64,000 nucleotides of DNA, from the NCBI GenBank assembly GCA_944349515.1, contig CALVNE010000003.1:3331-67330 (forward strand), given 5' to 3'. A program made the position numbers and the translations under genes. A model generated the notes under the pieces. That model was given only the letters and a program-made list of their open reading frames with translations, was not told the origin of the DNA and ran no database searches. This stretch comes from an uncultured Clostridia bacterium. GTDB taxonomy: Bacteria > Bacillota > Clostridia > Christensenellales > UBA1242. Positions 7,118 through 53,930 of this stretch are shown here, one piece after another (positions within the stretch are counted from its first letter, which is position 1; each line of letters starts with the position of its first letter).

Positions 7118-7900
7118 TTATTTAGTTTTATAAAAAATTTTTGTGATACATGAATTTAAAAATTTTGTGGTTGTTATTCGCTTGAAGAAATAAAAGAGGT
7201 GATATTGTCTGCCGATGATGTATTGCGGTTTGAACTTGTCCTTTTCAATTATCTTCATGATTTTCTTGACAGCGTAGGAGAGGGACATTCGTCTTTTTTC
7301 CGTTTTTTCGGTTGGCTTTGTGGAAAGTTCCACAGATTTTCCGTACCTGTCGTTCGTCTCGTAGATTTTTGTTCTATTTTCGGTGAAATTCGTTCTTATA
7401 TCGCCGGGGCAAATTGAGGTGACTTCAATATCGGTTCTACTTAGTTCCATTTTAAGCGACTGCGCAAAACTGTCAATGGCGGACTTGCTTGCGCAGTAAT
7501 ATGCCTTGAAAGGCAGTGGGAAGATGGCGGTTGCAGAGGAAATTATCACAATTTTTGCCTTCTTTTTCATCATAGGAAGGGCGTATTTACAAGCGTTCGT
7601 GGTGCCAAAAAAGTTGACATCAAATTGGCGTTTTGCTTCCTCTTCGCTTATTAGTTCCACCGCGCCAGAAACGCCATAGCCCGCCGAAGTGATTAAAATG
7701 TCAATTCCGCCGTGGGTGAGATAGATATCGTCAAAAATCGCTTTCAACTTCTTTTCATCGGCGACGTCGCATTGATAGTCCTTGCCATTTCGCGATATGT
7801 CGATAACCTTATCGCCTTTTTTTTCAAAACATTCCTTTAAACCCTTACCAACTCCGCTTGACGCGCCGGTTATAACAATCGTTCTTCTTTCAATTCTCAT
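7118..7900 (-). CDS. short-chain dehydrogenase/reductase (SDR)
   Basis: TGASSGVGKG Rossmann motif and YCASK catalytic motif. Start moved to the ATG at 7900, preceded by GGAGAAAAAA; the ORF-track start at 7945 lacks an RBS. Confidence 0.85.
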   Translation of the reverse strand: MRIERRTIVITGASSGVGKGLKECFEKKGDKVIDISRNGKDYQCDVADEKKLKAIFDDIYLTHGGIDILITSAGYGVSGAVELISEEEAKRQFDVNFFGTTNACKYALPMMKKKAKIVIISSATAIFPLPFKAYYCASKSAIDSFAQSLKMELSRTDIEVTSICPGDIRTNFTENRTKIYETNDRYGKSVELSTKPTEKTEKRRMSLSYAVKKIMKIIEKDKFKPQYIIGRQYHLFYFFKRITTTKFLNSCITKIFYKTK

Positions 7901-8062
7901 TTTTTTCTCCAAATATATTTTTAGCACATTTTCTCTTTTTTTCAAAATGATTTGACAGTTATTTCAAAAAAATGTTAGCATATATATGCTTATAGTTGAA
8001 TTTTGTTTAACTACTGGTCTACGGAGCAATAATATTAAAGTATTCGCTTTATGGAGGTAAGC

Positions 8063-10406: not shown

Positions 10407-11528
10407 TTGGAAACTAGAAAGACCTTTTCGTCACTTTTAATTTATTATATCGTCGTTTGCATCTTCATTGCGGTGCGAATGCTTAGTTATTTTAGTGTGT
10501 TTTCTTTTTTGGGGAGCGCTGGCAATTATATCGTAAATGGGTTTATGCAGGTGGGAGTTTTGTTCCTCTTCTCTATAATCACCTATAAACTTATGAATAA
10601 GCAAACTTTTCGGGCAACTTTTGAGGATTTTAACTATAGAAAAACCTCCTACAAGGTCATCTTTATCGCCATTGGGCTTGGCGTTGTCATCTATTTTCTC
10701 AACGTTTTTGTGTCAAGTTTCTTCTACGCTATTTTAGACGGACTAGGGTATGAGTCGCCCTATGCTTCCTCGTCCGCGGGCGGGAGTGTGTGGTCGCTTA
10801 TTCTCAGTTTAATTTTCACCGCCATTTTGCCGGCAATTTGCGAGGAAACTTTAAACCGTGGTATGCTTTTAAACGGCACGCGCGGGCTTGGCATGAAAAA
10901 GTGTATTCTGCTCAACGGACTACTTTTCGGGCTTCTGCACCTCAACATTGAGCAGTTCTTTTACGCCACACTTATCGGCTTTTTCCTCGGCTTTGTGGTG
11001 TATGTGACGGAGTCTATCTATCCTTGCATGATAATTCACTTTATGAACAATGGTATTGGTGTGGTCCTTTCCTTTTTGACATCAAACGGGTATATTTCGG
11101 GCGGAATTTTCACGCAGTTAAACAACCTTACTTCCGCGAATCCGGTCTTGGGAATTTTGGTTATGAGCGTGGTGTTTGTTGTGCTGGTCTTTCTTCTTGG
11201 AGTGCTGACGCGAATGTTACTGCGCGCATCGGTGGAGGCTAATTTCCACGCCAAACAAAAAGCACTTCAAGACCTCTTCACAAAGTTTGCCTACTTTGAA
11301 GAGGTGGATAAAATTCAAAACGAGAACTCTATCGACGAGAGCGCGGAGGCAAAAGAGGCAATGCTTGATATGGACAAGATTAAGGGCTTTTTGGAAGAGC
11401 ATCCAGACGCCGTTGTAATTAGAACCAAAAAGACAAAAATGAACTCTCTCTCCAAGGCTATTTTAATTTTTACCATTACCATGTCGGCACTTGTGACGAT
11501 ATTTTCCTTTATTTGGGGTGTGATATGA
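10407..11528 (+). CDS. CPBP family intramembrane glutamic endopeptidase, second paralogue
   Basis: 373 aa. CEETLNRG, GLLH, HFMNN motifs. TTG start preceded by AGGAG. Confidence 0.75.
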   Translation: METRKTFSSLLIYYIVVCIFIAVRMLSYFSVFSFLGSAGNYIVNGFMQVGVLFLFSIITYKLMNKQTFRATFEDFNYRKTSYKVIFIAIGLGVVIYFLNVFVSSFFYAILDGLGYESPYASSSAGGSVWSLILSLIFTAILPAICEETLNRGMLLNGTRGLGMKKCILLNGLLFGLLHLNIEQFFYATLIGFFLGFVVYVTESIYPCMIIHFMNNGIGVVLSFLTSNGYISGGIFTQLNNLTSANPVLGILVMSVVFVVLVFLLGVLTRMLLRASVEANFHAKQKALQDLFTKFAYFEEVDKIQNENSIDESAEAKEAMLDMDKIKGFLEEHPDAVVIRTKKTKMNSLSKAILIFTITMSALVTIFSFIWGVI

Positions 11529-12352: not shown

Positions 12353-12628
12353 GCGCTGGGATAGATGGGGAGTTAGCGGTGCCCTGTAACCTGCAATCCG
12401 CTATAGCAGGATTGAACGCTTGCCTAGGAGTAATTTGGTTGAAGATGTGCGTAAAATAAGGGCGTTGAAATCAAGGTCTTATGCAATTGGTAACTCTGAA
12501 CCATGTCAGGTCCTGACGGAAGCATCATTAAGGAGATCTATCGATGTGCCATAAGGTAGCTTTGGTGGAGTTTTTGTTCTACGAAACAGTCAGTCTTATT
12601 ATTTCAAAGCATTCTCTCAGCTATCATC
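12353..12628 (+). ncRNA. ffs: signal recognition particle RNA, long Bacillus-type (with Alu domain)
   Basis: Domain IV core CCATGTCAGGTCCTGACGGAAGCATCA. The 5' GGTGCCCTGTAACC.. is an Alu-like region. Own promoter and terminator. Ends are approximate. Confidence 0.85.
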
Positions 12629-12729: not shown

Positions 12730-13278
12730 ATGGAAAAGAAAAAACTAACACTAACATCATTAAATAAGGAGGAATATCCAGACAAAGAAGTTGAATGTGT
12801 TGTTATTAAAGATATGAAAGCATATGTTCAATATCTTTTGGAAAATGGTGCAAAAATAAGATACGCACAAAAGACAGCTTCTGTTTCAGCAAGAGTTGGG
12901 GTTATTGGAGAAGAAGTTGACACTCGTCCAAGAGTTGAAAGAGATGGACAGGTGTATGTTATCGGCGAAACCAAGGGAAAGGTTAAAGTTGAAGGTAGTA
13001 TGATTGTTAGAAATCCAGATGGAGAAGAGTACATCGTTAAGCCTGATAAATTTGCAAGTAAATATCGTGCAACAAGCGAAAAAGGCGTATATAAGCCAAC
13101 TGATGGACCTATTAAGTATGTTAAAATCGATCAGGATATTGCGTTCACTGCTTCATGGGGTGAGATGTATGGCGCAAAGGGAGCTGTTTTGAATATTTCA
13201 AGTTTAGATGATGTTTATGTTATTCAAAACGAAGCATTTAGCAAAACCTACACTGATGTTGAAAGAACAAAGGAATAA
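12730..13278 (+). CDS. hypothetical protein (no family recognised)
   Basis: 182-aa ORF with strong GAGGAGG RBS. By eye its codon usage resembles rpsB/tsf. Bounded by a bidirectional terminator. Confidence 0.7.
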   Translation: MEKKKLTLTSLNKEEYPDKEVECVVIKDMKAYVQYLLENGAKIRYAQKTASVSARVGVIGEEVDTRPRVERDGQVYVIGETKGKVKVEGSMIVRNPDGEEYIVKPDKFASKYRATSEKGVYKPTDGPIKYVKIDQDIAFTASWGEMYGAKGAVLNISSLDDVYVIQNEAFSKTYTDVERTKE

Positions 13279-13420: not shown

Positions 13421-13612
13421 TTACATCTTTTTCATTTCTTTTTTCATCTTTTCAAGTTTTGGTTCGACCTTGTCTTTCATCTCGTTAATCTCTTTCTTTA
13501 CCGCTTTTTCGCCTTTGTTGACCATGGACTTTGCCTCTTGCGAGTGCTTGTAAAGAAGAGCGCCTGTTATCATGCCTGCACCAAAGCCGAGAAGTGTCAT
13601 TAATTCTTTCAT
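13421..13612 (-). CDS. YtxH-like small membrane-associated protein
   Basis: 63 aa. N-terminal GFGAGMITGALL helix followed by a K/E-rich coiled region. GGGAGGAAGAT precedes the ATG at 13612. Confidence 0.7.
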   Translation of the reverse strand: MKELMTLLGFGAGMITGALLYKHSQEAKSMVNKGEKAVKKEINEMKDKVEPKLEKMKKEMKKM

Positions 13613-13891
13613 ATCTTCCTCCCTATTTATATTTTCTCCAAATTTCGATAAAATATGCAAAACATTGGGACAGACACCAAACTTTTAAAACGCGGACACG
13701 GATATTTAAACATATCCTAACCGCTAAAAGCTTTCTCTTCCCAGTCCTCTTCCCTGTAGGTGATTTTTGATTTATGCTCGCCGGGCAAAGCCCTTCCCCT
13801 CGCAAAATCAAAAATTGATTAAAAGTATGAAAGTCTAGCGCTGTGAGAAAAGTGGTTTTTATTATAGAATGAAATATAATTATTTAAAAAT

Positions 13892-13975
13892 CCATCCCTA
13901 ACTCTTCACTGCGAGCCAACGGCTCGCCTTCACTTTTCACTCTTAACTCCGTTCCGCTAGGAACGGCTCTTTTCT
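13892..13975 (-). repeat. AGTGAAGG-hairpin repeat element (short copy, reverse orientation)
   Basis: The minus strand reads CCGTTCC-TAGC-GGAACGG .. AGTGAAAAGTGAAGG-CGAGCCGTTGGCTCG-CAGTGAAGAGTTAGGGATGG. Confidence 0.8.
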
Positions 13976-14050
13976 TTTTCGACAAAATAACAAAAGATTA
14001 GTTAAGTTAAATTTACGCCCTTTCACATATAGTGCTTTAAGGGGTGGACT

Positions 14051-14953
14051 ATGTTAGGGAAAATTCTTCCGGATAAAATTTGGCTGATTATTAAGGATAA
14101 GGTCAACTTGAAGGCGGTGAACGAAATTCGCTTCCGTGCGGACAAGCCCATTCTTATATCCATGGGCGGTAAAAGTTATTTTCTAAGCCAAAAAGGCATC
14201 TCTTCAAGTTTAAGCGAGGCGTTATATTCCTCGAAAATCGTCATTGAGGACATCATTTTTCGCGCCAGCGAGTGCTCTATTTATTCCGTCAATGAGCAGA
14301 TTAAAAGAGGCTACATCATCACCGAGAACGGGCTGAGAATCGGCATTGGTGGCAATGTGGTGGAGGAGAACGGGCAGGTAAAGACAATGACGAATTTTAA
14401 TAGCATTAATATCAGAATTCCGCACATCGTTAAAAACTGCTCACTCTCGGCTTTTTCTAACATTGTGCATGACGGCATTATCGAAAATACGCTTATAATC
14501 TCTCCGCCGGGATGCGGTAAGACCACGTTCCTACGCGACTTTGTTATGCAACTAAGCGAACGAAACCTTCTATATAACGTTCTCTTGCTTGACGAGCGCG
14601 GGGAACTTGACACCAATTTAAGCGCCAACTTCTTCGACAAAATTGCCTTTTCAAGCAAAAAAATGGGCTTTGAAAACGGCATACGCGCGCTTTCGCCCGA
14701 CCTTATCGTCACCGACGAAGTGGGGCAAGAGGAGGACGTTGACGCCATTTTATACGCCTCCACTTGTGGTGTTAAAATACTCGCGTCCACCCACGCCGAC
14801 AGCATGGAAACCTTTTTAAAGAAGGACCTCTTTCAAAAACTTATCAAGGAAAAGGTCTTTAAGCGCTATGTGCTTTTATCTAAGCGAAACGGACCGGGCA
14901 CATATGAAGGGATTTATAATGAAAACTTCTCGCGTTTGTCAGCAAACTTTTAA
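14051..14953 (+). CDS. spoIIIAA: stage III sporulation protein AA (ATPase)
   Basis: 300 aa. Walker A ISPPGCGKTT and Walker B-like LIVTDEVG. First gene of the spoIIIA cluster. Confidence 0.9.
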   Translation: MLGKILPDKIWLIIKDKVNLKAVNEIRFRADKPILISMGGKSYFLSQKGISSSLSEALYSSKIVIEDIIFRASECSIYSVNEQIKRGYIITENGLRIGIGGNVVEENGQVKTMTNFNSINIRIPHIVKNCSLSAFSNIVHDGIIENTLIISPPGCGKTTFLRDFVMQLSERNLLYNVLLLDERGELDTNLSANFFDKIAFSSKKMGFENGIRALSPDLIVTDEVGQEEDVDAILYASTCGVKILASTHADSMETFLKKDLFQKLIKEKVFKRYVLLSKRNGPGTYEGIYNENFSRLSANF

Positions 14954-14999
14954 AGAGGACAAATTTTTAAAAGGATAAATTTAAAGAGGACAAATTTTT
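14949..14999 (+). repeat. two direct copies of TTTAAAGAGGACAAATTTTT (period 31)
   Basis: Read directly at 14949-14968 and 14980-14999. Copy 1 contains the spoIIIAA stop codon. Confidence 0.85.
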
Positions 15000-16011: not shown

Positions 16012-16404
16012 ATGGATTCTCTTTATAAGATTATCGGCGTTGCGCTTATAACCTGTGTCGCCACGCTTGTTGTTAAGCCTGTTCGCCCTGATTTTGCCGT
16101 TTTTATCTCAGTTGTGGGAGGGATAATCATCATCTTCATGCTTGCCGGCTACCTCACCGACATCTTTGATGTGTTCAACAAAATTTTTAATGTCACCAAT
16201 GTCAACTCGTCGCTCTACAAAATCATCTTTAAAATAATCGGCGTGGGCTATCTTGTGGAGTTCACCGCCAGTCTATGCTCCGACACCGGCAACAACAGCC
16301 TTGGCGATAAGGTGCTGCTTGGCGGAAAGATAGTTATCCTTGTTATGGCACTTCCGATTGTCACCAGCATTCTTGAAATTGTTATGGAGTTACTGCCGAC
16401 ATGA
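16012..16404 (+). CDS. spoIIIAD: stage III sporulation protein AD
   Basis: 130 aa, polytopic. YKIIGVALI.. and ..GVGYLVEFTASLCSDTGN.. motifs. AGGAGG RBS. Confidence 0.85.
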   Translation: MDSLYKIIGVALITCVATLVVKPVRPDFAVFISVVGGIIIIFMLAGYLTDIFDVFNKIFNVTNVNSSLYKIIFKIIGVGYLVEFTASLCSDTGNNSLGDKVLLGGKIVILVMALPIVTSILEIVMELLPT

Positions 16405-17651
16405 CGAAAAGGGAACTTAGAAAAATTAAACGTGTTCGGCGTCGGAAAGGCGGTGCGCTACTTGTTGTGTTTATCATTTTTATTGCCTCATTTTTTGGAA
16501 GTTTTACCATAGACGGCTACGTTTTAAACACGCCATATGTGGTCGCAGAGAGCGAAGAGCAGTCTTTGGAAGAAGAGATACAAGTGGAGGTAGATGAGCA
16601 ACTAGGCGAACTAGATTTTACCGACCTTGAAACATATATTTTGAGCCTTGAAAATTCGGTGAAGGATATGTTCTCCGGTGGGTTTATGGCGAAGGTGGAA
16701 AGTTTGATAAATGGCGACTACATCACCGGCGACAGTTTTCTAACCTCGGTTCTTTCGCTACTTTGGGACGGGCTTTTGGGCTTTTTGCCGATAATTGCCA
16801 GCATTATTGCGGTGTCGATACTGGGCGGAATGGTGGGGAATTTAAAGCCGTCCACCGGCGGGAAGTCGATAGGCAACGTTGTGCATTTTGTCACCTACGG
16901 CGTGGTGATAGTTTTCCTTGGCACAACGCTTGTGGAACTTATTGCGCTTGTAAGTAAAACGTTAACCTCGCTTAAGAGGTTAATGGATATGATTTTTCCG
17001 GTTTTGCTCACCCTTTTAACTGCGGTCGGTGGGAGCGTGTCGGTGGGGCTATATCAGCCGGCAATCGCCATGCTCAGTAACATTTTCATTTCGCTTATCA
17101 CCTATCTTCTTATGCCACTTTTCATTTTCTCGATAATCTTTTCCATAGTCGGCAACCTTTCAAATAATGTTAAACTCGACAAGTTCGTTTCTTTCTTGCA
17201 AGGCACATTCAAATGGACGATTGGACTTCTTTTCACCCTCTTTCTCGGCTTTATCACCATTCAAGGCATATCGGCAAGCGCAGTGGACGGGCTTTCCATT
17301 CGAACGGCTAAGTACACCATTAAAAGTTACGTGCCGATTGTTGGCGGGTATGTCAGCGACGGACTTTCAATTATCATGGCGTCAAGTATGCTCATTAAAA
17401 ATGCCGTCGGCACAGCGGGACTTCTTTTAATTTTGTTTAGCGTGCTTTCACCGGTGATAAACCTAGTTCTCTTTATGCTTTCGCTTAGGTTTATGGCGGG
17501 AATTATCGAGCCGATTGGCGACAAAAAGACGGCAAACTTCATTTCGGACATCTCTAAAAGCATGAGCCTTCTTATCGCCCTTTTGGTGGCGGTGGCGTTC
17601 ATGTATATGGTTATGACGGGGCTGGTTATGTGTAGTTGCAATTTGATTTGA
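16401..17651 (+). CDS. spoIIIAE: stage III sporulation protein AE
   Basis: 416 aa, polytopic membrane protein. 4-nt overlap with spoIIIAD. Conserved operon position. Confidence 0.85.
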   Translation: MTKRELRKIKRVRRRKGGALLVVFIIFIASFFGSFTIDGYVLNTPYVVAESEEQSLEEEIQVEVDEQLGELDFTDLETYILSLENSVKDMFSGGFMAKVESLINGDYITGDSFLTSVLSLLWDGLLGFLPIIASIIAVSILGGMVGNLKPSTGGKSIGNVVHFVTYGVVIVFLGTTLVELIALVSKTLTSLKRLMDMIFPVLLTLLTAVGGSVSVGLYQPAIAMLSNIFISLITYLLMPLFIFSIIFSIVGNLSNNVKLDKFVSFLQGTFKWTIGLLFTLFLGFITIQGISASAVDGLSIRTAKYTIKSYVPIVGGYVSDGLSIIMASSMLIKNAVGTAGLLLILFSVLSPVINLVLFMLSLRFMAGIIEPIGDKKTANFISDISKSMSLLIALLVAVAFMYMVMTGLVMCSCNLI

Positions 17652-17699
17652 AAATATTGCCTGAGCAAATAAAAAAGTGTTCTGTGAAAATAAATTGAA

Positions 17700-17962
17700 T
17701 AGTGAAGAGAAGGCATTGCAAACGCAAGGTTTTTGAGTGAAGGGAAGGCGCAATGCCTTCCAGTGAAGGAACGCTAGCACGTTCAGTGAAGGAAAGACTG
17801 CGTCTTTCAGTGAAGGTGAACCGGCAAACGCAGAGCGTTTGAGTGAAGGCGAACCGCCGGTTCACAGTGAAGGCGAGGCGGCGCCTCGCAGTGAAGAGAA
17901 GTCTATCGACTTCTAGTGAAGGCGAACCTTTGGTTCGCAGTTGTGGAAAGTTTTTGAAAGTG
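17700..17962 (+). repeat. AGTGAAGG-hairpin tandem array (9 units plus AGTTGTGG tail)
   Basis: AGTGAAG starts at 17701, 17736, 17762, 17785, 17809, 17842, 17866, 17890 and 17915; AGTTGTGG at 17939. Each interval holds a short palindrome. Confidence 0.95.
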
Positions 17963-18059
17963 CGATAATACTATAAATCTTTTAACAAATGCCAAAATCG
18001 ATTTAAGCAAAAACTTACAATTTTAAATTACAATAAATTTTTTCTTTCTCTAAATCAAT

Positions 18060-18184
18060 CCGCAACTGCGAGGCAGTGCCTCGCCTTCACTGAACGCGTC
18101 AGTGTTCCTTCACTGCAAACCGCAAGGTTTGCCTTCACTGGAAAGATGCAATCTTTCCCTTCACTAAAAAATCTACGATTTTTT
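18060..18184 (-). repeat. AGTGAAGG-hairpin tandem array, reverse orientation (4 units plus tail motif)
   Basis: CCGCAACT at 18060; CCTTCACT at 18084, 18107, 18132 and 18158. The last hairpin AAAAAATC-TAC-GATTTTTT abuts the spoIIIAF AAGGAG. Confidence 0.95.
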
Positions 18185-18195
18185 AAGGAGTTTTT

Positions 18196-18708
18196 ATGAG
18201 CGGAATTTCTGCATGGTTATTGTCAATCACAGGCGTGATACTTTTGTCGGTTTTAAGCGAGTTTATTTTGCCGGAGGGGCAGATAAATAGGTACACCAAA
18301 GTGATTTTTGCCTTTGTTACCATTTTTGTTATCATTTCACCGCTTCCGTCGCTACTAGACAAAGAGATAGACTTTTCTTTCCCTTCCTATGATTCCGCGC
18401 TTCAAGAGGACTATCTTCACGAGATAAACCTCAGCAAGCTCAGCGCCTTGCAAACCGACCTTCAATCCGAACTTGAAAATGCGGGTATTTACAATGTGAG
18501 CATTTCCATTTCGGCGAACGCGTACAGCGAAAATTTGCAGATTTATGGAATTTATGTCGAACTTTGCGATGTGTCATTTTCTGCCGATTTTGAAAATAAA
18601 AATGTTAGTGAGGCAAAGCGAGCAATAGAAGAGATAATTTCATATATGCCAGCGCTTAGTGATGTGCCGATAACGTATGATGTCGACAAACGCGGAGCGT
18701 TTGAGTGA
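18196..18708 (+). CDS. spoIIIAF: stage III sporulation protein AF
   Basis: 170 aa. The N-terminal double TM (..WLLSITGVILLSVLSEFILPEG..YTKVIF..) resembles SpoIIIAF. AAGGAG RBS. Confidence 0.8.
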   Translation: MSGISAWLLSITGVILLSVLSEFILPEGQINRYTKVIFAFVTIFVIISPLPSLLDKEIDFSFPSYDSALQEDYLHEINLSKLSALQTDLQSELENAGIYNVSISISANAYSENLQIYGIYVELCDVSFSADFENKNVSEAKRAIEEIISYMPALSDVPITYDVDKRGAFE

Positions 18709-18811
18709 AGGGAAAGCCTTGCTTTCCAGTAAAGGAATGCCAAAGGCATTCAGTGAAGGGAAACCTGTCGGTTTTCAGTGAAGGCGAACCTTTGGTTCGC
18801 AGTTGCGGAAT
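18687..18811 (+). repeat. AGTGAAGG-hairpin tandem array beginning inside the spoIIIAF 3' end
   Basis: CAAACGC-GGA-GCGTTTG at 18687. AGTGAAGG/AGTAAAGG at 18704, 18728, 18752 and 18777; AGTTGCGG at 18801. Confidence 0.95.
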
Positions 18812-18951
18812 GTGTTAGAGGGCAAAATTTAAAAAATTTCCTCTCAAAAACCAAAGAAAGATTTAGAGTGTGTAAGTCGGGCGTTGATAGGTTTTGTGTA
18901 ATGCTAATTAAAGCATATGACCACTCTAATCAAAACCACTTTATGGTGCCG

Positions 18952-18987
18952 CAGTGAAAAACGAAGAAAGAAAAGTTGTGGAAAAGG
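18952..18987 (+). repeat. solo tail module of the repeat family
   Basis: CAGTGAAAAACGAAGAAAGAAAAGTTGTGGAAAAGG matches the tails at 53596 and 24787 (reverse complement). Confidence 0.7.
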
Positions 18988-22255: not shown

Positions 22256-23979
22256 AACTAAGTAAACTTGTCGGCGAGCGCTATAAAGAAACGCCAAATG
22301 GAGCACAACTTAAAAGCCACATCTTGCTTCTTCGCGCGGGCTACATAAAGCAGGTGAGCACCGGTATTTTTTCCATGCTTCCACCAGCGCAGAGAGTGAG
22401 CCAAAAAATTCAAAATATCATCCGCGAAGAGATGAACGCCATCGGCGGTCAAGAGGTCTTATTCCCTGTTGTTATGCCAAGGGAACTTTGGGAGATGTCT
22501 GGGCGCTACCAAACCATTCAAGAGGAACTACTCCGCTTTAAAGACAGAACTGGTCACGATATGCTCTTAGGTATGACGCATGAAGAGGCGGCTGTTCACA
22601 TGGTTATGAACACCGTGAAAAGCCACGACGAACTCCCTTGCATGATTTATCAAATTCAAACCAAATATCGTGACGAGGCGCGCCCACGCGGTGGACTTAT
22701 TCGCGTTAGAGAATTTCTTATGAAGGACGCCTACTCCTTTCACACTTCGCAGGAGGATTTGGATAGTTACTACAAAAAAGTCTATGACGCCTACAACAGA
22801 ATCTACAAGCGCATTGGGCTTAAAAACTTCATATCCGTGAAGTCCGACAGCGGCATTATGGGCGGTAAGGTGGCGGATGAGTTTATGCTTGTCACCGACA
22901 GCGGAGAAGATAGGCTTGTGCTGTGCGATAAGTGCGGGTATAAGGCGAACATGGAGGTCGCAAGTGGCGTCAAAACTCCAAACGCAGAATGCGAGATGAA
23001 AGAACTTGAAGAGGTTTTCACAGGTAACGCCAAAACGATTGAAGAACTATGCCACTACCTTGAAATAAAGCCGGAAGAGACCGTCAAGGCGGTGTGCTAT
23101 GTAACAAGCGAGGAAAAACTTGTTGTGGCGTTTCTTCGTGGCGACTATGAGATTAACGAAAAGAAACTAGCAAAACTTTGTAAGAGCGAAATTAAAGTTG
23201 CCGACACCGACAAATTTGGTTTGGTGGCGGGCAATATTGGTTGTGTCAACTTGACCGTGCCAGAGGATGCACTTGTTTTCTATGACACCTCAATTGCGGG
23301 CTTAACAAATTTCGTCACCGGTGCCAACCGTGCAGATTACCACCTAAAGAATGTGTGCGCTTCGCGTGATTTGGCGGGCGTAAGTTATAACGATATTGCG
23401 CTTGTGAAAGAGGGCGATTGTTGCCCTGTGTGCGGGGAAAAATTGAGGCTGACGCGCGGTATTGAGATAGGCAACATCTTCCAACTCGGCACAAAATACA
23501 CCAAAACCATGGGCATGAAGGTCAGCATGCCAAACGGAAGCAGTATGGAGCCAATCATGGGTTGCTATGGCATAGGAATAGGCAGGGCGCTTGCCAGCAT
23601 AATTGAAGAAAAGGGCGATGATAAGGGTATTGTTTGGCCGATGACGGTTGCGCCATGGCAGGTGCATTTCTGCCCACTTCGACTTGACGACGAAAATGTT
23701 TCGGCGGTGGCTGACGAACTCTATAAGAAGATGCTTGACGCTGGCATTGAGGTGCTGTACGATGACCGCATTGTTTCCGCTGGCGTGAAACTCACTGACA
23801 GCGAACTTATGGGCATGCCAATTCGCGTGGTGATTAGCCCTAAAACCATGGCAAACGGCACAGCCGAAGTGACCATGCGCGAAACTGGCGAAACAAACTT
23901 CATTCCTCTTCAAAACCTCCTAAGCGAACTTAAAGCCATAATCGAAGATGAGATAGAAGAAATAAACAAAAATCTTTGA
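22252..23979 (+). CDS. proS: proline--tRNA ligase (bacterial type with INS editing domain)
   Basis: 575 aa. Class II motifs (..FRDE.RPRGGLIRVREF..; ..GCYGIGIGR..). 4-nt overlap with xseB. Confidence 0.95.
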   Translation: MKLSKLVGERYKETPNGAQLKSHILLLRAGYIKQVSTGIFSMLPPAQRVSQKIQNIIREEMNAIGGQEVLFPVVMPRELWEMSGRYQTIQEELLRFKDRTGHDMLLGMTHEEAAVHMVMNTVKSHDELPCMIYQIQTKYRDEARPRGGLIRVREFLMKDAYSFHTSQEDLDSYYKKVYDAYNRIYKRIGLKNFISVKSDSGIMGGKVADEFMLVTDSGEDRLVLCDKCGYKANMEVASGVKTPNAECEMKELEEVFTGNAKTIEELCHYLEIKPEETVKAVCYVTSEEKLVVAFLRGDYEINEKKLAKLCKSEIKVADTDKFGLVAGNIGCVNLTVPEDALVFYDTSIAGLTNFVTGANRADYHLKNVCASRDLAGVSYNDIALVKEGDCCPVCGEKLRLTRGIEIGNIFQLGTKYTKTMGMKVSMPNGSSMEPIMGCYGIGIGRALASIIEEKGDDKGIVWPMTVAPWQVHFCPLRLDDENVSAVADELYKKMLDAGIEVLYDDRIVSAGVKLTDSELMGMPIRVVISPKTMANGTAEVTMRETGETNFIPLQNLLSELKAIIEDEIEEINKNL

Positions 23980-23995
23980 GGACTCAAAGATTTTT
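23968..23995 (+). terminator. 13-bp hairpin AAAAATCTTTGAG-GA-CTCAAAGATTTTT overlapping the proS stop; head of the repeat array
   Basis: Read directly. Stem plus T5. The TGA stop (23977-23979) lies in the left arm. Confidence 0.75.
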
Positions 23996-23996
23996 G

Positions 23997-24123
23997 AGTG
24001 AAGGCAAAAATCACAGATTTTTGCAGTGAAGGCGAGCAAATGCTCGCAGTGAAGGAACGCTGACGCGTTCAGTGAAGGCGAGCCGGTGGCTCGCAGTTGT
24101 GGATGATTTTAGAAAGTGAAGGG
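23997..24123 (+). repeat. AGTGAAGG-hairpin tandem array (4 units plus tail)
   Basis: AGTGAAGG at 23997, 24025, 24048 and 24071. AGTTGTGG at 24095, followed by ATGATTTTAGAAAGTGAAGGG. Confidence 0.95.
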
Positions 24124-24774: not shown

Positions 24775-24786
24775 AACCCCGCATTC

Positions 24787-24825
24787 CCTTTTCCACAACT
24801 TTCACTTTTCACTCTTCACTTTATA
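24787..24825 (-). repeat. solo tail module of the repeat family (reverse orientation)
   Basis: The plus strand reads CCCTTTTCCACAACTTTCACTTTTCACTCTTCACTT, the reverse complement of AAGTGAAGAGTGAAAAGTGAAAGTTGTGGAAAAGGG. Confidence 0.8.
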
Positions 24826-27447: not shown

Positions 27448-28107
27448 ATGAGTTTTACTGCACAAGATGTTGCAAAATTAAGACAACAAACCGGCGTTGG
27501 TATGATGGAGTGCAAAAAGGCGCTCACAGAATCCAATGGCGATTTTGAAAAGGCGATTGTTATCCTTCGCGAAAGAGGCTTGAAGGCGGTTGACAAAAAG
27601 CAAAGCAGAATTGCTTCCGAGGGGCTTGTTGCTTCCTATATCCACATGGGTGGAAGAATCGGCGTTTTGGTTGAGGTTAACTGCGAAACCGATTTCGTGG
27701 CTAAGAGCGAAGATTTCCAGGTTTTAGTTAAGGATATTGCTATGCAAATTGCCGCTGCAAACCCTAAATATGTTCGCGAAGAGGAAGTGGACCCAGCAGA
27801 ACTTGAAAAGGAAAAGGAAATTTTGAAGGCGCAAGCGCTTAACGAGGGCAAACCTGCAAGCATCGTTGAAAGAATGATTGAAGGAAGAATTAAAAAGTAT
27901 TATGAGGACGTTTGCCTTTTAAATCAGCCTTTTGTTAAGGATAGCAGTAAAACAATTAAAGATGTCCTAACTGAGGCAACCTTAAAAATTGGCGAGAAGA
28001 TTTCGGTTAGACGTTTTGTTCGTTACGAACTTGGCGAAGGACTTGAAAAAAGAAACGAGAACCTTGCCGAAGAGGTTGCAAAGCAAGTTGCAAGCGTTAA
28101 CAAGTAA
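27448..28107 (+). CDS. tsf: translation elongation factor Ts (short form)
   Basis: 219 aa. ..VAKLRQQTGVGMMECKKAL.., ..IGVLVEVNCETDFVAK.. Confidence 0.95.
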   Translation: MSFTAQDVAKLRQQTGVGMMECKKALTESNGDFEKAIVILRERGLKAVDKKQSRIASEGLVASYIHMGGRIGVLVEVNCETDFVAKSEDFQVLVKDIAMQIAAANPKYVREEEVDPAELEKEKEILKAQALNEGKPASIVERMIEGRIKKYYEDVCLLNQPFVKDSSKTIKDVLTEATLKIGEKISVRRFVRYELGEGLEKRNENLAEEVAKQVASVNK

Positions 28108-28108
28108 G

Positions 28109-28146
28109 AAAAAGGATAAAGCCTAATAGGTTTTATCCTTTTTCTT
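28109..28146 (+). terminator. rho-independent terminator of tsf
   Basis: AAAGGATAAA ... TTTATCCTTT stem with a trailing T-run, 2 nt after the stop. Confidence 0.8.
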
Positions 28147-28292
28147 AGTGAAGGGAAAGACTGCGTCTTTCCAGTGAAGGTGAACCATTGGTTCACAGTG
28201 AAGGCGAGGCGGTGCCTCGCAGTGAAGGGAAATCAAAGATTTCCAGTTGTGGAAGATTTTAGAAAGTGAAGAGTTGTGGTAGGTTAAGAGTG
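28147..28292 (+). repeat. AGTGAAGG-hairpin tandem array (4 units plus full tail)
   Basis: AGTGAAGG at 28147, 28173, 28197 and 28221; AGTTGTGG at 28245. The tail AAGATTTTAGAAAGTGAAGAGTTGTGGTAGG.. runs into the stop of the truncated GT2 gene. Confidence 0.95.
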
Positions 28293-28580
28293 AATATCAT
28301 CTTGGTCACAGCAGGCATAGTAGTCAAATGTTGAAGGAGCATTTTGGATAAGGGTGGCAAAACTTTTCCCGAACCCTAAATTCCCCCTCCCACAAGATAT
28401 ATCGATAGGGAAACCTTTCTTTTTATATTTCTCTAAAATTTGAACAGTCTTATCCGAACTTCCGTCATCGCGCACAAACAGTGTGAGGTTGACGTCTTTT
28501 TGATTAAACACACTATCTAAAAGTTCGCGCAGATATTTTTCACCGTTGTAAGTGCTTAAAAGAACTGCCACGTTATTCAT
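28284..28580 (-). pseudogene. 5' fragment of a family-2 glycosyltransferase gene (truncated just after the DxD motif)
   Basis: MNNVAVLLSTYNGEKYL..VRDDGSSD..CDQDDI then HS-stop. Only 98 aa against roughly 300 expected. AAGGAG RBS before the ATG at 28580. Confidence 0.75.
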
Positions 28581-28653
28581 ATATATCTCCTTTATTTCAA
28601 TAATCATTATATCATTCTCAATATTGTCTTTCAAAGTAATTGCAACAATTTAC

Positions 28654-32001: not shown

Positions 32002-33888
32002 ATGGATAACTTTTCAAGGGAAAGCGAAATCATTGAATTTGCGGAAAAATATTTCGCCATGAGCGCCGACGAGGCGGAACAGGCGCTTTTAAAGACCAAG
32101 GCTAAAAAGTTCTATAACGAAAGTTATCTGTACGCAGTTTTAAGTGCCATTAAGCCGTATTTCGATAGGTTCATAGCCCTAACGCCCGTTGACCTTCAAC
32201 GCAAGATTGGCAGAGTGGCGTTTGAAAATTTGAATTTTTTCGACATTTCTCAGTATGAAAAGCCGGGCGACATCTTTTTGCGCCTTCGCAAGTTTTTTGA
32301 GGAAACCAGCGACTTTGGAATAAATCCGTATAAAATTTTTTACTCCTCTGTCATCTCAAAGGCGCACCTTTTCTATAATAAGGAGGGGCAGTGCAGTAAT
32401 TTTAAAAGCGATACCGCTAACTTCAAGGCGGTGTCAAGCGCCATTTCGCGTCAACTTGGCATTGATAAAAAGAAAGTGGCGAAGATGTATGAAAGGTGTT
32501 CCACCCTTTGCTATAAGGTTGATGTTGTGAAGGTGAGCGATAACTACACCGCTTTGAGGCTTCTTTTCATAAATTCTCGACCGCTACTAGACGGCGTGGA
32601 GGTAAAGGAAATTTTGCGAAACAATCCAACTCTTTACGCTTGCTCTAAAAGCACCATTTCTTTGGCTTTTTCCTATCTAAAAGAAAAGGCGGAAATCTAC
32701 AAGGCGCGTACTAAAGACGAGCGTAACCTTTCTGAGATTTTGGCGTCATGGATAAAGAACAACTCTACGGCACTCGCACTAAATGTGAAAGGTATGCGAG
32801 AAAAAGAGGGCGCGCTTACCAAGTTTTTACAGACCTTTGCAAGTAAAAGCGAGGTAGACGCTGTTATAAATTCCATTTTTGACAACCCAACAAACATCTG
32901 CGCGATAAACAAAATTTCAAGCGACACCTTTTTCAAAAACAACAACTACATATCGACTATTAGAACCCTCATCACTTACCTTGACAACGATAGCGGATGC
33001 CCGGTGAACACCATAAGATATCTAATGAAGTCGAAACTTGTATATTCGGTGGACGGCGAGAGATTGAAACAATTTTTGGAAAAAGTTAAAGACGCCGACC
33101 AACTTAATAAAACAAATATCATGCAAAAATTTGCGGAACGTGGCGACGCCGTTTTTGGCTATTTCAACAAGTTTACCGATGAGCAGATTATCGAAAAACT
33201 CATGACAAACAAGATTCTTTTCCCAATCAAACTCTACAACATGACCAAATCGGCTATTGCACAGAAGTTTTATGAGGTATTTTCGAATAATGCCGATGGA
33301 AATTTCGAGTATTTTAACCGACTTTTACGAAAGAACTATTACTATGAAATCATATGCCGAAATTTAGATTTCGCCGAGGAGTACCTTCGCGAATTTGATT
33401 TCGATTTGCGTGAAAAGGCTGACCTTAGGGGTGTGGCTGAGAACATCAAAAACGCCGTGCTTTCCTTTACAAGTGCCTATGTTGAATACGCCGACCGCTA
33501 TATTAAAACAACCATGCGCGAGGACGTGAAGGACTATCAAATGGCGGTTCGAGGCGTTAAAAAAGAGATTGAAAACCTCTATAATGAAGGCGCTATTTTG
33601 GCGCGAGAGCGATACGAAAATGTCGACGAATTATACGAAACTTTCAAGAAAAACACGGAAGAAAAGTTATCTATTCATAACAATCCTATTTTTCGGCGCG
33701 ATAACTTTTTAAGGAAGTTAATGGAGGCGTCTAAGGTGCTTGAAAAGGACGCCACTACAAGGCAACTTACAATCTATGACAACTTCACCATCGACAAGGA
33801 TAAAGAGGAGGCTTACAAATCTTTGAAAACTGCGCTTAACAGTATGCTTGCTCTTCAAAAGCATGAAGGCGAAAAAGTTAAGGTTTAA
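32002..33888 (+). CDS. hypothetical large alpha-helical protein (no family recognised; weak mTERF-like repeat flavour)
   Basis: 628-aa uninterrupted ORF with its own promoter, RBS and terminator. Helix-rich, no TM, no catalytic motif seen. Confidence 0.65.
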   Translation: MDNFSRESEIIEFAEKYFAMSADEAEQALLKTKAKKFYNESYLYAVLSAIKPYFDRFIALTPVDLQRKIGRVAFENLNFFDISQYEKPGDIFLRLRKFFEETSDFGINPYKIFYSSVISKAHLFYNKEGQCSNFKSDTANFKAVSSAISRQLGIDKKKVAKMYERCSTLCYKVDVVKVSDNYTALRLLFINSRPLLDGVEVKEILRNNPTLYACSKSTISLAFSYLKEKAEIYKARTKDERNLSEILASWIKNNSTALALNVKGMREKEGALTKFLQTFASKSEVDAVINSIFDNPTNICAINKISSDTFFKNNNYISTIRTLITYLDNDSGCPVNTIRYLMKSKLVYSVDGERLKQFLEKVKDADQLNKTNIMQKFAERGDAVFGYFNKFTDEQIIEKLMTNKILFPIKLYNMTKSAIAQKFYEVFSNNADGNFEYFNRLLRKNYYYEIICRNLDFAEEYLREFDFDLREKADLRGVAENIKNAVLSFTSAYVEYADRYIKTTMREDVKDYQMAVRGVKKEIENLYNEGAILARERYENVDELYETFKKNTEEKLSIHNNPIFRRDNFLRKLMEASKVLEKDATTRQLTIYDNFTIDKDKEEAYKSLKTALNSMLALQKHEGEKVKV

Positions 33889-36477: not shown

Positions 36478-36785
36478 AATATAAACTATGTGATGTTAAA
36501 ATTTAAGCAAGTTAAATTTTAAATTTTGCTAACGCAAAAACACAATAAATTGTGTTCATCACATAGTATGTATGACCATCAGTCTCACTCAAATGTGACT
36601 TCGTCACGCTTGGTTCGACTTCCGATAATATAAACTATGTGATGTTAAAATTTTATTCACATAAAATTTTAATAAATTCTAAGGAATTTTGCGTGCTTCG
36701 CCCGCCATCACAGTTTGAATGAACATCAGTCTCACTCAAATGTGACTTCGTCACGCTTGGTTCGACTTTCGATAATATAAATGTA
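36478..36785 (+). repeat. ~147-bp tandem cassette repeat with conserved boundaries and divergent cores
   Basis: AATATAAACTATGTGATGTTAAAATTT at 36478 and 36627. CATCAGTCTCACTCAAATGTGACTTCGTCACGCTTGGTTCGACTT(C/T)CGATAATATAAA at 36577 and 36724. Confidence 0.9.
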
Positions 36786-36929
36786 TTTAAACTGCGAGGG
36801 TAACAATTTAGGTAAAAGTAGGCTTGAACACATATTAAAAACGCGCCACGCTGAACGCAAATTCGCATATGCTGGGCGCTGCAATACCAACGATTTTAAG
36901 AAACTCATGGATTTAGTAGGAGCAATTTA

Positions 36930-38312: not shown

Positions 38313-38341
38313 TTGACAAAATGGCGTGTTGTTTATAAAAT
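38313..38341 (+). promoter_or_regulatory. sigmaA-type promoter, apparently giving a leaderless mRNA
   Basis: TTGACA (38313-38318), 17-nt spacer, TAAAAT (38336-38341). ATG at 38349 with no SD. Confidence 0.45.
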
Positions 38342-38348
38342 ATATAGT

Positions 38349-39878
38349 ATGAATTTTGAGCAGGAATTTAACAAAAAGTTTGGCGAGCGATTTCCAAATT
38401 TATACTTAAAAAATGTTGTGGTGAGCGGAGACAGTTGCGCGGTGACCTTCCTTTATCCGTCCACTGACGAAACACTTACTGACGCCGAAAAAGAAGAAAT
38501 AACAAAGTTTGTGGAAGAAAAGTTAGGGCTTGCCAATTTAAAACTTAAAGTTAAATTTATGAAGGCGTATGTTGAAGAAAAGTTGATAAGAAAGGAACTT
38601 TCTAACATTTTGGAAGATAAGTTTAAGTTGTTAAACACCTATATTCGCGACGAAGATATCAAAGTAGAGATAACAAATATCGACTGCAACATAACCTTCG
38701 ATGTCAGTCCAAGAATTGCACAGTTTTTTGCCGATAACAAGGTTTCGGCGTTTCTTTCAAAGGATTTAAAAAAGAATTTTTTAACCAATTTCAACATCAA
38801 CCTCAATGTGCTAAGCGATAAAGTGGACGAGGTAGAACTAGAAAGCGTACAACTTAAAACGTCGGCGCGTCGAACACAGCGCTATGATGTTTTAATTATC
38901 AAAGAGGTGATTGGGGGAAATATCCCAACAAAGCCGGAGTATATCTCTTTCATTCAGTCGCCTAAGTCCTCGGTGATACTCGCTGGCTACATATCCGATT
39001 TTGAGCGGAAGGACTTTGTTATAAAAAAAGGCACGCGCGCGGGTCAGCAAAAGGCTTACTATAAGTTTAACCTCACCGACCACAAGGGCAAAATTGAGTG
39101 CATTTACTTCTGCCCTAAGAAAAACGAGGCGGTTATGGACGCGCTTGAAGAGAATATGTTCCTTCTACTTCACGGCGATGTTAGGCTGGGGCTTAACAAC
39201 AAACTTGTGCTGTATATCGACAAACTTGCGCTTGCCAGCGAAACGGAACAAAGGGAAGAAACTATCGAACGAGCGTCCGCAAAAGAGGTGGAAATTGAGC
39301 GTCTTGGCGCGCTGGAACAGGACAATATGTTCGGCGAAGTGGAAAAGTACAACCGAAAAATCATGGACCACAACATCGTGGTGTTCGACGTGGAAACAAC
39401 CGGGCTTAATCCGGAGTTTGACCAAATCATCGAACTTGGTGCGGTGAAGATTGAAAAGGGCAACATCGTGGAAAAATTTTCCACTTTCGTCAAGCCGACC
39501 ATTGAAATTCCGTATGAGGTGACCGAACTTACCCATATTTCGAACGATATGGTGGAGGACGCGCCGGAGATTGAGGACGTCATCAAGCAGTTTTACGATT
39601 TTTCGAAGGAGTGCGTGCTATGCGGACACAATATTATAAATTTCGACATAAAATTTATCCGCCGATTTGGTAAATTGCAGAATTTGGAATTTGACAACGA
39701 CCTCATCGACACCATGAATGAAGCGCGCGTTTCTCGACTTAAAATTTCGCGTTTCAACCTTGGCACAGTGACTAAGGCGCTGGGCATTGAACTTAAAGGC
39801 GCACACCGGGCATGGAACGACGCCTTCGCCACGGCGCAAGTGCTTTTAAAACTCAACGAACTCGGCAAGAAATTGTGA
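38349..39878 (+). CDS. PolC-N-terminal-like protein: N-domain plus OB fold plus DEDDh 3'-5' exonuclease, no polymerase/PHP part
   Basis: 509 aa. OB-like ..YYKFNLTDHKGKIECIYF... Exo I VVFDVETTG, Exo II GHNIINFDIKF, Exo III HRAWNDAFATAQV. Sits where polC lies in frr-uppS-cdsA-rseP-(proS)-polC-rimP synteny. Confidence 0.75.
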   Translation: MNFEQEFNKKFGERFPNLYLKNVVVSGDSCAVTFLYPSTDETLTDAEKEEITKFVEEKLGLANLKLKVKFMKAYVEEKLIRKELSNILEDKFKLLNTYIRDEDIKVEITNIDCNITFDVSPRIAQFFADNKVSAFLSKDLKKNFLTNFNINLNVLSDKVDEVELESVQLKTSARRTQRYDVLIIKEVIGGNIPTKPEYISFIQSPKSSVILAGYISDFERKDFVIKKGTRAGQQKAYYKFNLTDHKGKIECIYFCPKKNEAVMDALEENMFLLLHGDVRLGLNNKLVLYIDKLALASETEQREETIERASAKEVEIERLGALEQDNMFGEVEKYNRKIMDHNIVVFDVETTGLNPEFDQIIELGAVKIEKGNIVEKFSTFVKPTIEIPYEVTELTHISNDMVEDAPEIEDVIKQFYDFSKECVLCGHNIINFDIKFIRRFGKLQNLEFDNDLIDTMNEARVSRLKISRFNLGTVTKALGIELKGAHRAWNDAFATAQVLLKLNELGKKL

Positions 39879-53578: not shown

Positions 53579-53632
53579 TGAAAGGCAGAGGCTTTCAGTG
53601 AAAAGAGAAACGTGAAAAGTTGTGGAAGATTG
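53579..53632 (+). repeat. short copy of the repeat family (weak hairpin plus tail)
   Basis: ..GGCTTTCAGTGAAAAGAGAAACGTGAAAAGTTGTGGAAGATT, starting 1 nt after the spoVAE stop. Confidence 0.8.
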
Positions 53633-53676
53633 AGATTATTGATTTTATATAATAAAAATTGTTAATACAAAATGTA

Positions 53677-53700
53677 GTGTAGTATGCAATGCGTAATACA
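53677..53700 (+). repeat. decayed copy of the GTAGTATGCA palindrome
   Basis: GTGTAGTATGCAATGC followed by a degenerate right arm GTAATACA. Confidence 0.6.
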
Positions 53701-53738
53701 TCATAAATTGTGGTATTATGCCATTTCATTTGCTATTT

Positions 53739-53930
53739 TCTAAGCTTTTCCACAACTTGTAAAACGCAGTCTTTCCTTCACTGCGAGGCTCTATATTTAT
53801 TCACTTTTCACTTTTTATAATTTTACCACAACTTTTCAATTCTTCACGTTTCACCGAAAACCGTTAGGTTTTCTAAAATCTACCACAACTTTTCACGTTT
53901 CACTTTTCACTCAAAAATCTTCGATTTTTG
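53739..53930 (-). repeat. repeat-family array in reverse orientation with three tail modules, starting at the yunB stop
   Basis: The minus strand reads CAAAAATC-GAA-GATTTTTG AGTGAAAAGTGAAACGTGAAAAGTTGTGGTAGATTTTAGAA .. GAAAAGTTGTGGTAAAAT .. CGCAGTGAAGGAAAGACTGCGTTTT..AGTTGTGGAAAAGC. Confidence 0.9.

Follow-up and report, generated by a model that had tools for sequence, protein, structure and literature searches.

What lies between spoIIIAE and spoIIIAF, two genes of the spoIIIA sporulation operon, in the 64-kb stretch of DNA from an uncultured Clostridia bacterium that was analysed here (called the window below)? A preliminary description of this gap reported a tail-to-tail pair of arrays, in which the short motif AGTGAAG(G/A) alternates with hairpins, and took the pair for an insertion in the operon. 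Our analysis suggests, with a probability of roughly 60%, that the locus consists of three copies of a previously undescribed, lineage-specific and modular interspersed repeat of REP/BIME- or BOX-like character, which is mobile or expanding.

With regard to the locus itself, Pfam identified spoIIIAA-AF and spoIIIAH around it, with spoIIIAE upstream (16401..17651, + strand; Spore_III_AE, E = 7e-67) and spoIIIAF downstream (18196..18708, + strand; Spore_III_AF), and the reported distance of 544 bp between these two genes was borne out. The sense array (17701..17946, + strand) contains nine AGTGAAG(G/A) linkers, starting at 17701, 17736, 17762, 17785, 17809, 17842, 17866, 17890 and 17915, each with its own G/C-closed hairpin, and closes with the motif AGTTGTGG from 17939. 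Its units are, in order, 35, 26, 23, 24, 33, 24, 24, 25 and 24 nt long, and the RNA hairpin energies of single units range from -3.6 to -11.6 kcal/mol. The tail module of this array, CAGTTGTGGAAAGTTTTTGAAAG (family consensus CAGTTGTGGAAGATTTTAGAA), occupies 17938..17960 (+ strand). The mirror-image antisense array (18060..18165, - strand) consists of the tail motif CCGCAACT at 18060 and four hairpin units with CCTTCACT at 18084, 18107, 18132 and 18158, and the inverted-repeat arms 17915-17957 and 18049-18091 are complementary at 74%. All these motifs were re-located at the positions reported before, and every interval between them does hold its own palindrome, with stems of 5-8 bp, including a closing pair between the G that ends the motif and the C ahead of the next motif, and loops of 3-6 nt. 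The spacer between both tails (17947..18059) is AT-rich as described (GC 20%), but its length is not ~97 bp: it is 113 bp between the 8-mers, or 91 nt when the extended inverted tails or arms are included. Similarly, the last hairpin, the head hairpin AAAAAATC-TAC-GATTTTTT (18166..18184), was correctly placed near the spoIIIAF Shine-Dalgarno sequence AAGGAG (18185-18190), though it abuts this sequence directly. Another head hairpin, caaacgc-aga-gcgtttg, lies inside the + array (17825..17841, + strand) and breaks up a tgaacc hairpin. The same CAAACGC-N2-4-GCGTTTG head opens the arrays at 18687 and in two relatives, L022 and L011 (at 5190), with an AGTGAA-type linker directly after it (7 nt on in L011). 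The + array 17701-17946 is probably two elements, joined or nested, with the internal head hairpin marking them.

It may be suspected that such a locus is an assembly artefact of chimeric or collapsed short reads, as the preliminary description itself had allowed, and indeed all the assemblies are short-read metagenomic and two Logan contigs end inside the + array. This explanation is scarcely credible, because the locus is base-identical in four other assemblies, from four samples, that cover all or most of it, and because every 31-mer across 17690-18190 is unique within the window. A fifth contig, which covers the last 85 bp before spoIIIAF, is identical there, and homologous arrays occur at other loci in other species. 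A further full-length identical copy, on contig L055, is probably the source record of the window.

The arrays are not a singular feature of the spoIIIA operon: a census revealed a dispersed family at about ten places in the window, that is, arrays or fragments at about nine further places beside housekeeping and sporulation genes, and also in about four related uncultured Clostridia genomes. The motif AGTGAAGG has 25 copies in the window against 1.38 expected, a number that none of 100 shuffles reached. The elements are built of a head hairpin, n units and a tail, with one to nine units at at least 10 loci in four to five genomes and the tail CAGTTGTGG. The head hairpin has the general form CAAA(CGC or AATC)-loop-(GCG or GATT)TTTG and comes in two versions, CAAACGC-N2-4-GCGTTTG and CAAAAATC-N3-GATTTTTG. 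A unit of 23-26 nt comprises the invariant AGTGAAG linker and a G-stem-loop-stem-C hairpin, of which the structure is kept and the stem and loop sequences are not. The tail consensus has a short form, CAGTTGTGGAAGATTTTAGA, and is often followed by more AGTGAAR or GTTGTGG pieces; tails recur at 18060 (-), 18801, 24095, 28245, 53618, 53757 (-), 53833 (-) and 53890 (-), as well as in L011, L022 and L054. Heptamer runs without hairpins, such as AGTGAAGAGTGAAAAGTGAAAG, are also present, an example being the heptad-and-tail fragment AGTGAAGAGTGAAAAGTGAAAGTTGTGG at 24780..24822 (- strand), upstream of an ArsP_2 gene.

The third array of the locus (18687..18808, + strand) stands directly after spoIIIAF, with a head hairpin at 18687-18703, four hairpin units and the tail AGTTGCGG. 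It is inverted with respect to 18060-18165, the arms 18048-18094 and 18774-18820 being 81% complementary, and spoIIIAF is thus bracketed by inverted arrays. A tail-like fragment, CAGTGAAAAACGAAGAAAGAAAAGTTGTGG, follows upstream of spoIIIAG (18953..18985, + strand). Elsewhere in the window, a member with one hairpin unit and heptads lies upstream of spoIIIAA (13904..13942, - strand), one with a head hairpin overlapping the proS stop codon, four units and a tail lies after proS (23967..24122, + strand), and one with four units and a tail lies after tsf (28147..28280, + strand), right behind a terminator-like hairpin (28107-28146) and T-run; tsf was assigned by synteny with L067. The tsf array adjoins a 116-aa open reading frame (ORF) (28284-28634, - strand) whose match to Glycos_transf_2 is limited to the N-terminal part; it may be the remnant of a gene cut short by the element or by a rearrangement. 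A second tail-to-tail pair lies between the convergent spoVAEB and yunB (53597..53925, with the + part at 53597-53640 and the - part at 53750-53925) and contains mainly tail and heptad modules and one degenerate hairpin unit. The Pfam assignments of the adjoining ORFs give spoIIIA genes, proS, spoVA, yunB and other housekeeping genes as neighbours of the arrays in the window. An association with sporulation was considered and rejected, as arrays of the relatives flank plsC-like, S1-domain, RimK-like, plsX and ftsY genes.

What is conserved in the units? At least six consecutive pairs were found in 40 of the 51 inter-motif segments, while among background 17-mers of the window outside the arrays the fraction with at least six terminal Watson-Crick pairs is 3.3e-4. 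In the set of 23 distinct units with a 17-nt variable part, from which one non-hairpin 17-nt segment of L063 was omitted, 98.1% of the cells of the 7-bp stem are paired, and compensatory changes on both sides were found at all seven pairs (48 cells). The observed covariation score was reached by none of 500 shuffles, and pairing fell to 29-45% when the partner was slid by 1-3 columns. Five of the seven stem columns show two to five pair types each at appreciable frequency, while the two outermost pairs are more than 90% conserved. Stem variants number 20 or more in the family and differ from unit to unit within an array, and the loops are not conserved. Judging from this pattern, the hairpin shape is what is maintained in the units, and any reader of them, be it a host factor or an enzyme that mobilises them, must recognise structure, since the hairpins vary in sequence yet always pair. 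On the other hand, some hairpins are shared: GAAAGACTGCGTCTTTC at 17785 and 28147, GCGAACCTTTGGTTCGC at 17915 and 18777, GGAAATCAAAGATTTCC at 28221 and in L063, and one allele common to L054 (4214 and 6639) and L063. Identical hairpins, loops included, across loci and species point to copying rather than independent origin.

The preliminary description had proposed that the arrays are inserted in the operon, and the same intergenic region in relatives, reached through SpoIIIAF homologues, agrees with this, with presence and absence differing even among close relatives. The spoIIIAE|AF gap is element-free, with 9-83 bp of ordinary sequence, in five of them (11 bp in L069, 30 bp in L070, 83 bp in L065, 9 bp in L071 and 10 bp in L072); in a sixth, L067, the gap holds unrelated sequence of 195 bp. 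The arrays are therefore insertions. A smaller tail-to-tail pair is found in the gap of L063 and L064, and tail fragments only, plus other sequence, in that of L061 and L062. The SpoIIIAE proteins of L061 and L063 are 99% identical, yet the contents of their spoIIIAE|AF gaps are unrelated, so that turnover must be much faster than coding divergence. By protein identities, L069 groups with L061 and L063, and the window falls outside that group. The clean 11-bp junction of L069, against the occupied ones of the window and of L061 and L063, therefore indicates independent insertions at the same junction or precise loss, and the spoIIIAE|AF junction is a probable insertion hotspot. The arrays are stable inside species, as the window locus does not differ between samples, L054 matches L063, and L063 matches L064.

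Other sites tell of the same turnover. Between spoIIIAF and spoIIIAG the window has 309 bp, whereas the four relatives compared lack the third array and have 12-48 bp; the gaps between called genes are 11-67 bp in three more relatives. The last eight codons and the stop codon of spoIIIAF (TGA, 18706-18708) lie in the head hairpin and first AGTGAAGG of the third array, and where the SpoIIIAF of relatives ends in ...ITYDDTKIL, that of the window ends in ...ITYDVDKRGAFE. These two parts of the array thus encode a new C-terminus and stop codon. A gene of L011 likewise has its stop codon inside the motif, and so the TGA of the motif serves as gene stop codon in two cases. At the site after proS, L061 has the tail part only, and in the window four hairpin units stand between that tail and the stop codon; arrays therefore expand or contract beside existing modules. 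Upstream of spoIIIAA, the array of L054 (6593-6670) and L063 (2355-2420) has the opposite orientation to that of the window (13904-13942) and rearranged modules, and L069 has none; the opposite orientation implies inversion, rearrangement or independent insertion.

The sequence around spoIIIAA has further characteristics. The region upstream of the gene (window 13965-14050; L054 6680-6750; L061, L063, L065, L069) is conserved in all relatives and contains TTCGACAAAA, which is like a Spo0A box, and, immediately ahead of the start codon, a CATATAGTGCTTTAAGGGG segment, and the repeat elements always end short of it. The sequence AATTTACGCC has three copies on the + strand against 0.27 expected, one upstream of spoIIIAA (14010) and two in the spoIIIAA|AB gap (15025 and 15096); part of the spoIIIAA promoter region may be duplicated. 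This 161-bp gap also contains a 15-nt tandem repeat, CAAATTTTTAAAAGGA, in 3.6 copies (14943-14999). In the more distant L067, of which SpoIIIAF is 63% identical, the AGTGAAG family is absent and other tandem repeats occupy the same operon: a 22-nt unit, TTTTAGAGTTAATGCAGTCGTT, in 5.7 copies in spoIIIAB|AC (7780-7903), which resembles the tail GCAGTTGTGGAAGATTTTAGA, and A-rich repeats of 12-21 nt in the 353-bp spoIIIAG|AH gap (11020-11370).

How the elements are oriented bears on whether they are selected as RNA. They occupy intergenic sites and gene ends, mostly with the head against the gene and the tail toward the intergenic centre. Ten arrays stand no more than about 60 nt from a stop codon, and every one of them runs in the sense of the gene that ends there; in the antisense copies the head adjoins a start codon. 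One may therefore think of a host-selected RNA element, in which AGUGAAG heptamers displayed between hairpins serve as a platform or sponge for a protein or for ribosomes, the latter contacted through the weakly Shine-Dalgarno-like GAAGG, or in which the array is a stabiliser or processing module of 3' untranslated or intercistronic regions. The invariance of the linker, the freedom of stems and loops to vary under strictly kept pairing and the uniform sense orientation after stop codons would fit this explanation. The layout is also like that of CsrB/RsmZ- and CrcZ-type sponges, in which short motifs are exposed on hairpins or between them. We nevertheless consider it rather unlikely, because antisense arrays stand upstream of genes (18060-18165, 13904-13942, 24780-24822 and L011 6237-6298), one array is behind a terminator-like hairpin, the wobble pairs have no strand bias, and the family is patchy even where SpoIIIAE is 99% identical, unlike a conserved regulatory RNA. 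Moreover, the sense bias may be explained in part by selection against translational read-through, since only the sense strand provides a TGA in each unit.

Selection at the DNA level is another explanation, in which the palindromes, extruded as cruciforms or as hairpins of single-stranded DNA, would combine with AGTGAAG into sites bound or cleaved by, for example, a nucleoid protein, gyrase, a recombinase or an HUH nuclease, the selected trait being an effect on the chromosome, not on RNA. The symmetry of the palindromes without a strand-specific wobble bias and the occurrence of arrays in both orientations and beyond a terminator-like hairpin are what it would predict, and the binding of gyrase and IHF by E. 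coli BIMEs offers a parallel (see also PMC3479197 and PMC3733652). We regard it as improbable: at 6-8 bp the stems are on the short side for extruding cruciforms, the scan of 39 window ORFs yielded no candidate protein, and this explanation does not predict that arrays behind stop codons are strictly in sense.

Searches for known or similar families were consistent with an undescribed, lineage-specific repeat, and the preliminary statement that the arrays match no catalogued RNA family stands. Rfam gave no family in the arrays at gathering or permissive thresholds, only chance-level matches (E = 0.27-8.6), among which the sole CRISPR-DR match had E = 7.5. No match to the array sequences was found by blastn against phage and plasmid collections, and literature searches found no description of an AGTGAAG hairpin-array family. 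Pattern scans revealed three true relatives with the same linker and tail and mostly different hairpins, namely L011 and L022 (two species-representative genomes, both 'uncultured Clostridia bacterium') and L054 (a metagenome contig). A scan of the genome collection for three consecutive units returned 53 loci, among which only L011 and L022 were true relatives; the other 51, from unrelated phyla, were perfect tandem repeats of the ordinary kind, for the most part coding or simple. A metagenome scan with a tail-specific pattern returned one locus, L054. The 14 matches to the three-unit pattern in viral contigs were all plain tandem repeats, with no real match among them, and a structure-only scan of the window and relatives for clusters of perfect hairpins with other linkers found just AT-rich low-complexity palindromes.

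The earlier view that the architecture resembles no known repeat family holds for catalogue matches, but not for design, as REP/BIME dimers and the modular BOX elements are close conceptual relatives. REP, BIME and REPIN sequences of Gammaproteobacteria carry a GTAG or CGTC tag beside a palindrome and are mobilised by RAYT tyrosine transposases (PMC3733652). As in these, the units are short extragenic stem-loops (23-26 nt, where 20-40 nt is the defined size) of high copy, with about ten loci in 64 kb; a conserved single-stranded tag stands beside the hairpin, compensatory changes preserve the hairpins, and the copies are mainly 3' of genes and often within operons. They also form head-tail arrays and tail-to-tail or head-head dimers 20-100 bp apart, and their number varies among close relatives. 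Unlike REP/BIME, the tag is (C)AGTGAAG(G), the hairpins have no flanking GTAG or CGTC, there is no family-wide stem consensus, only the linker being invariant, long direct tandem arrays are bounded by distinct head and tail modules, and the host is a member of the Clostridia with no RAYT among the ORFs scanned. The text of the survey by Di Nocera never mentions Firmicutes or Clostridia (PMC3733652). In its build the family is also like BOX, boxA-(boxB)n-boxC, with fixed end modules and a variable count of internal modules; both are intergenic in a Firmicute and can change the ends of coding sequences (PMC3049150). BOX of pneumococci is co-transcribed as 3' or 5' extension of operons and predicted to fold tightly, and its mode of movement is unknown (PMC3049150). 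BoxB, however, is ~45 nt and conserved in sequence, whereas the units here are 23-26 nt and conserved only in the linker of 7-8 nt.

The alternation of constant and variable segments calls to mind CRISPR, and the tandem units, whose bounding stems vary in sequence yet stay palindromic, call to mind the arrays of TIGR-Tas. These have variable yet consistently palindromic stems and unconserved repeats, and are missed by repeat finders based on conservation (PMC12045711; bioRxiv 10.64898/2026.09.09.750476). That the arrays are such guide-RNA or defence arrays, with units processed to small RNAs, is very improbable. A CRISPR was rejected because the segment that stays constant has just 8-9 nt, against direct repeats of 23-50 nt separated by unique spacers in CRISPR, the variable segment is a 15-19-mer complementary to itself, a leader is lacking, and the scanned ORFs include no cas gene. 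A TIGR-Tas array was rejected on its anatomy, as the loops have 3-6 nt, the units repeat every 23-26 nt and not at 36 nt or more, and no tas or Nop gene adjoins in the ORFs scanned. Indeed, no Cas, Nop or tas gene was found among the 39 scanned ORFs of the window, about ten small arrays are scattered over 64 kb by housekeeping genes, and the searches of viral contigs, phages and plasmids yielded nothing similar.

Heptamer runs and operon-gap placement are also features of some other repeats. STRR repeats of cyanobacteria are tandem heptamers in intergenic regions, small dispersed repeats are very small, nested, palindromic mobile units, and mycobacterial MIRUs lie in intercistronic operon gaps in sense orientation and overlap stop codons. 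The family shares heptamer runs and operon-gap placement with them, and the sequences are not known to be related. To our knowledge, none of them combines an invariant heptamer linker with hairpins variable in sequence. This is the combination that distinguishes the family: an invariant linker, hairpins conserved only in structure and rapid turnover.

Taken as a mobile or expanding repeat, the family would spread by copy-and-insert of whole or partial elements, and the spoIIIAE|AF gap would represent at least two, probably three, tail-to-tail insertions, like a 'TT dimer' of REP or a REPIN. The enzyme may act on single-stranded DNA and read the invariant single-stranded motif beside a hairpin, for which RAYT, reading GTAG and the REP hairpin, is a model. 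The arrays would grow, shrink and recombine at the linker of 8-9 nt. Several points weigh against this reading. The evidence base is the 64-kb window and ~150 kb of fragments from relatives. Among the 39 scanned ORFs of the window no transposase, RAYT or Y1/HUH domain was found, and neither a target-site duplication nor a terminal inverted repeat is definable at the elements; as regards the criteria for a MITE, empty sites exist, and the element boundaries are blurred by neighbouring decayed copies. The near-perfect pairing across many stems argues that the hairpin is needed for mobilisation or for a host function, because a purely neutral element would decay. The stems contain three G-U and two A-C wobble cells without strand preference, and with this balance selection on RNA is indistinguishable from selection on DNA. 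Finally, an RNA role cannot be the whole story, because the tsf array sits beyond a terminator-like hairpin.

A further possibility, which we consider doubtful, is that the true unit is not the element but the single 24-nt module, AGTGAAG with a hairpin recognised by its shape, which is read by an unknown structure-reading enzyme or RNA-binding protein. An HUH/Y1-type single-stranded-DNA nuclease could cut at AGTGAAG beside any G/C-closed hairpin, with arrays growing unit by unit, or else an RNA-binding protein might use the arrays as multivalent platforms. This would explain why the hairpins are perfect despite drifting sequences and, if true, would mean a new recognition logic for bacterial interspersed repeats, the linker being read by sequence and the palindrome by structure.

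Whatever their origin, the arrays would be carried by a read-through spoIIIA mRNA. The idea that they pair across the spacer is supported by prediction: the full minimum free energy of the 544-nt intercistronic RNA is -207.7 kcal/mol (z = -10.4) against -139.5 kcal/mol with local hairpins only, so that pairing between the inverted arrays is thermodynamically favoured. During transcription, local hairpins would form first. Termination that splits the operon, which had also been proposed, is not indicated by the sequence, because the hairpins are followed by CAGUGAAGG without a U-tract and none was called terminator-like. An intrinsic terminator inside the arrays was rejected on the same basis, each unit hairpin being followed by CAGTGAAGG, and a likeness to bidirectional terminators is confined to the A/T-rich head hairpins. 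The operon is therefore expected to be read through. The AT-rich spacer has no convincing sigma-70-like promoter on the + strand and one weak match (9 of 12) on the - strand (17995-17968). The hairpin stack and the inverted array may form an imperfect duplex of ~100 bp in the spoIIIA mRNA, of which the most probable effect would be that of an exonuclease barrier or processing site, uncoupling the stability and translation of spoIIIAE and spoIIIAF. By analogy with known repeats, transcribed hairpin stacks probably act as RNA-decay barriers; the upstream mRNA segment would likely be shielded from 3' exonucleases, and the long duplex would possibly be cut endonucleolytically. SpoIIIAF would be translated from its own Shine-Dalgarno sequence right behind the last hairpin. 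Such RNA effects are shown by REP/BIME, BOX, ERIC and Correia elements once transcribed (PMC3049150, PMC3733652, PMC3116915), and transcribed copies of REP/BIME act as mRNA stabilisers or attenuators (PMC3733652, PMC3116915, PMC3049150).

Some other features of the window were recognised in the course of this work. The bacterial large signal recognition particle RNA, the only match to Rfam in the window beyond chance-level ones, lies at 12356-12620 (+ strand; Rfam RF01854, 153.5 bits) and has 92% nucleotide identity in L054. The segment 12664-13427, with an ORF of 182 aa (12730-13278) that weakly matches PGDYG, is absent from the syntenic place of L054, and L062 and L063 have a gene of 183 aa called at the position matching this ORF, the correspondence being one of position. 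The next segment, 13428-13656, is 87% identical to L054, above the flanking genes (75-77%). A 628-aa ORF at 32002-33888 (+ strand) has no Pfam match. The cdsA-rseP interval (36560-36850) contains two direct copies of ~100 nt, ...catcagtctcactcaaatgtgacttcgtcacgcttggttcgactt(c/t)cgataatataaa..., of which the first is followed by ctatgtgatgttaaaatt, a sequence also found ~140 nt upstream of the first copy; these repeats have no Rfam match at the gathering threshold and may represent either a further repeat family or a non-coding RNA that was duplicated. In the usual place of polC before rimP-nusA-infB there is a protein of 521 aa (38313-39878, + strand) that combines an OB-fold with a DEDDh/RNase_T exonuclease domain and is far too short for a full PolC.

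Finally, the interspersed palindromic repeats of bacteria, few in kind and known chiefly from Proteobacteria and streptococci, gain a Clostridia family. The design of this family is unusual in that the single-stranded linker of 7-8 nt is invariant while each hairpin of an array is different but perfectly pairing, and the AGTGAAG hairpin pattern is a clean natural covariation experiment. Arrays of this kind interrupt assemblies of short reads and are overlooked by repeat finders, so that metagenome-assembled genomes probably contain more of them than has been reported. The spoIIIA genes, normally close and probably co-expressed, are here parted by 544 and 309 nt of highly structured sequence, and the operon evidently still works in a widely sampled spore-former. 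The locus is thus of interest mainly as an example of repeats tolerated inside an essential sporulation operon.

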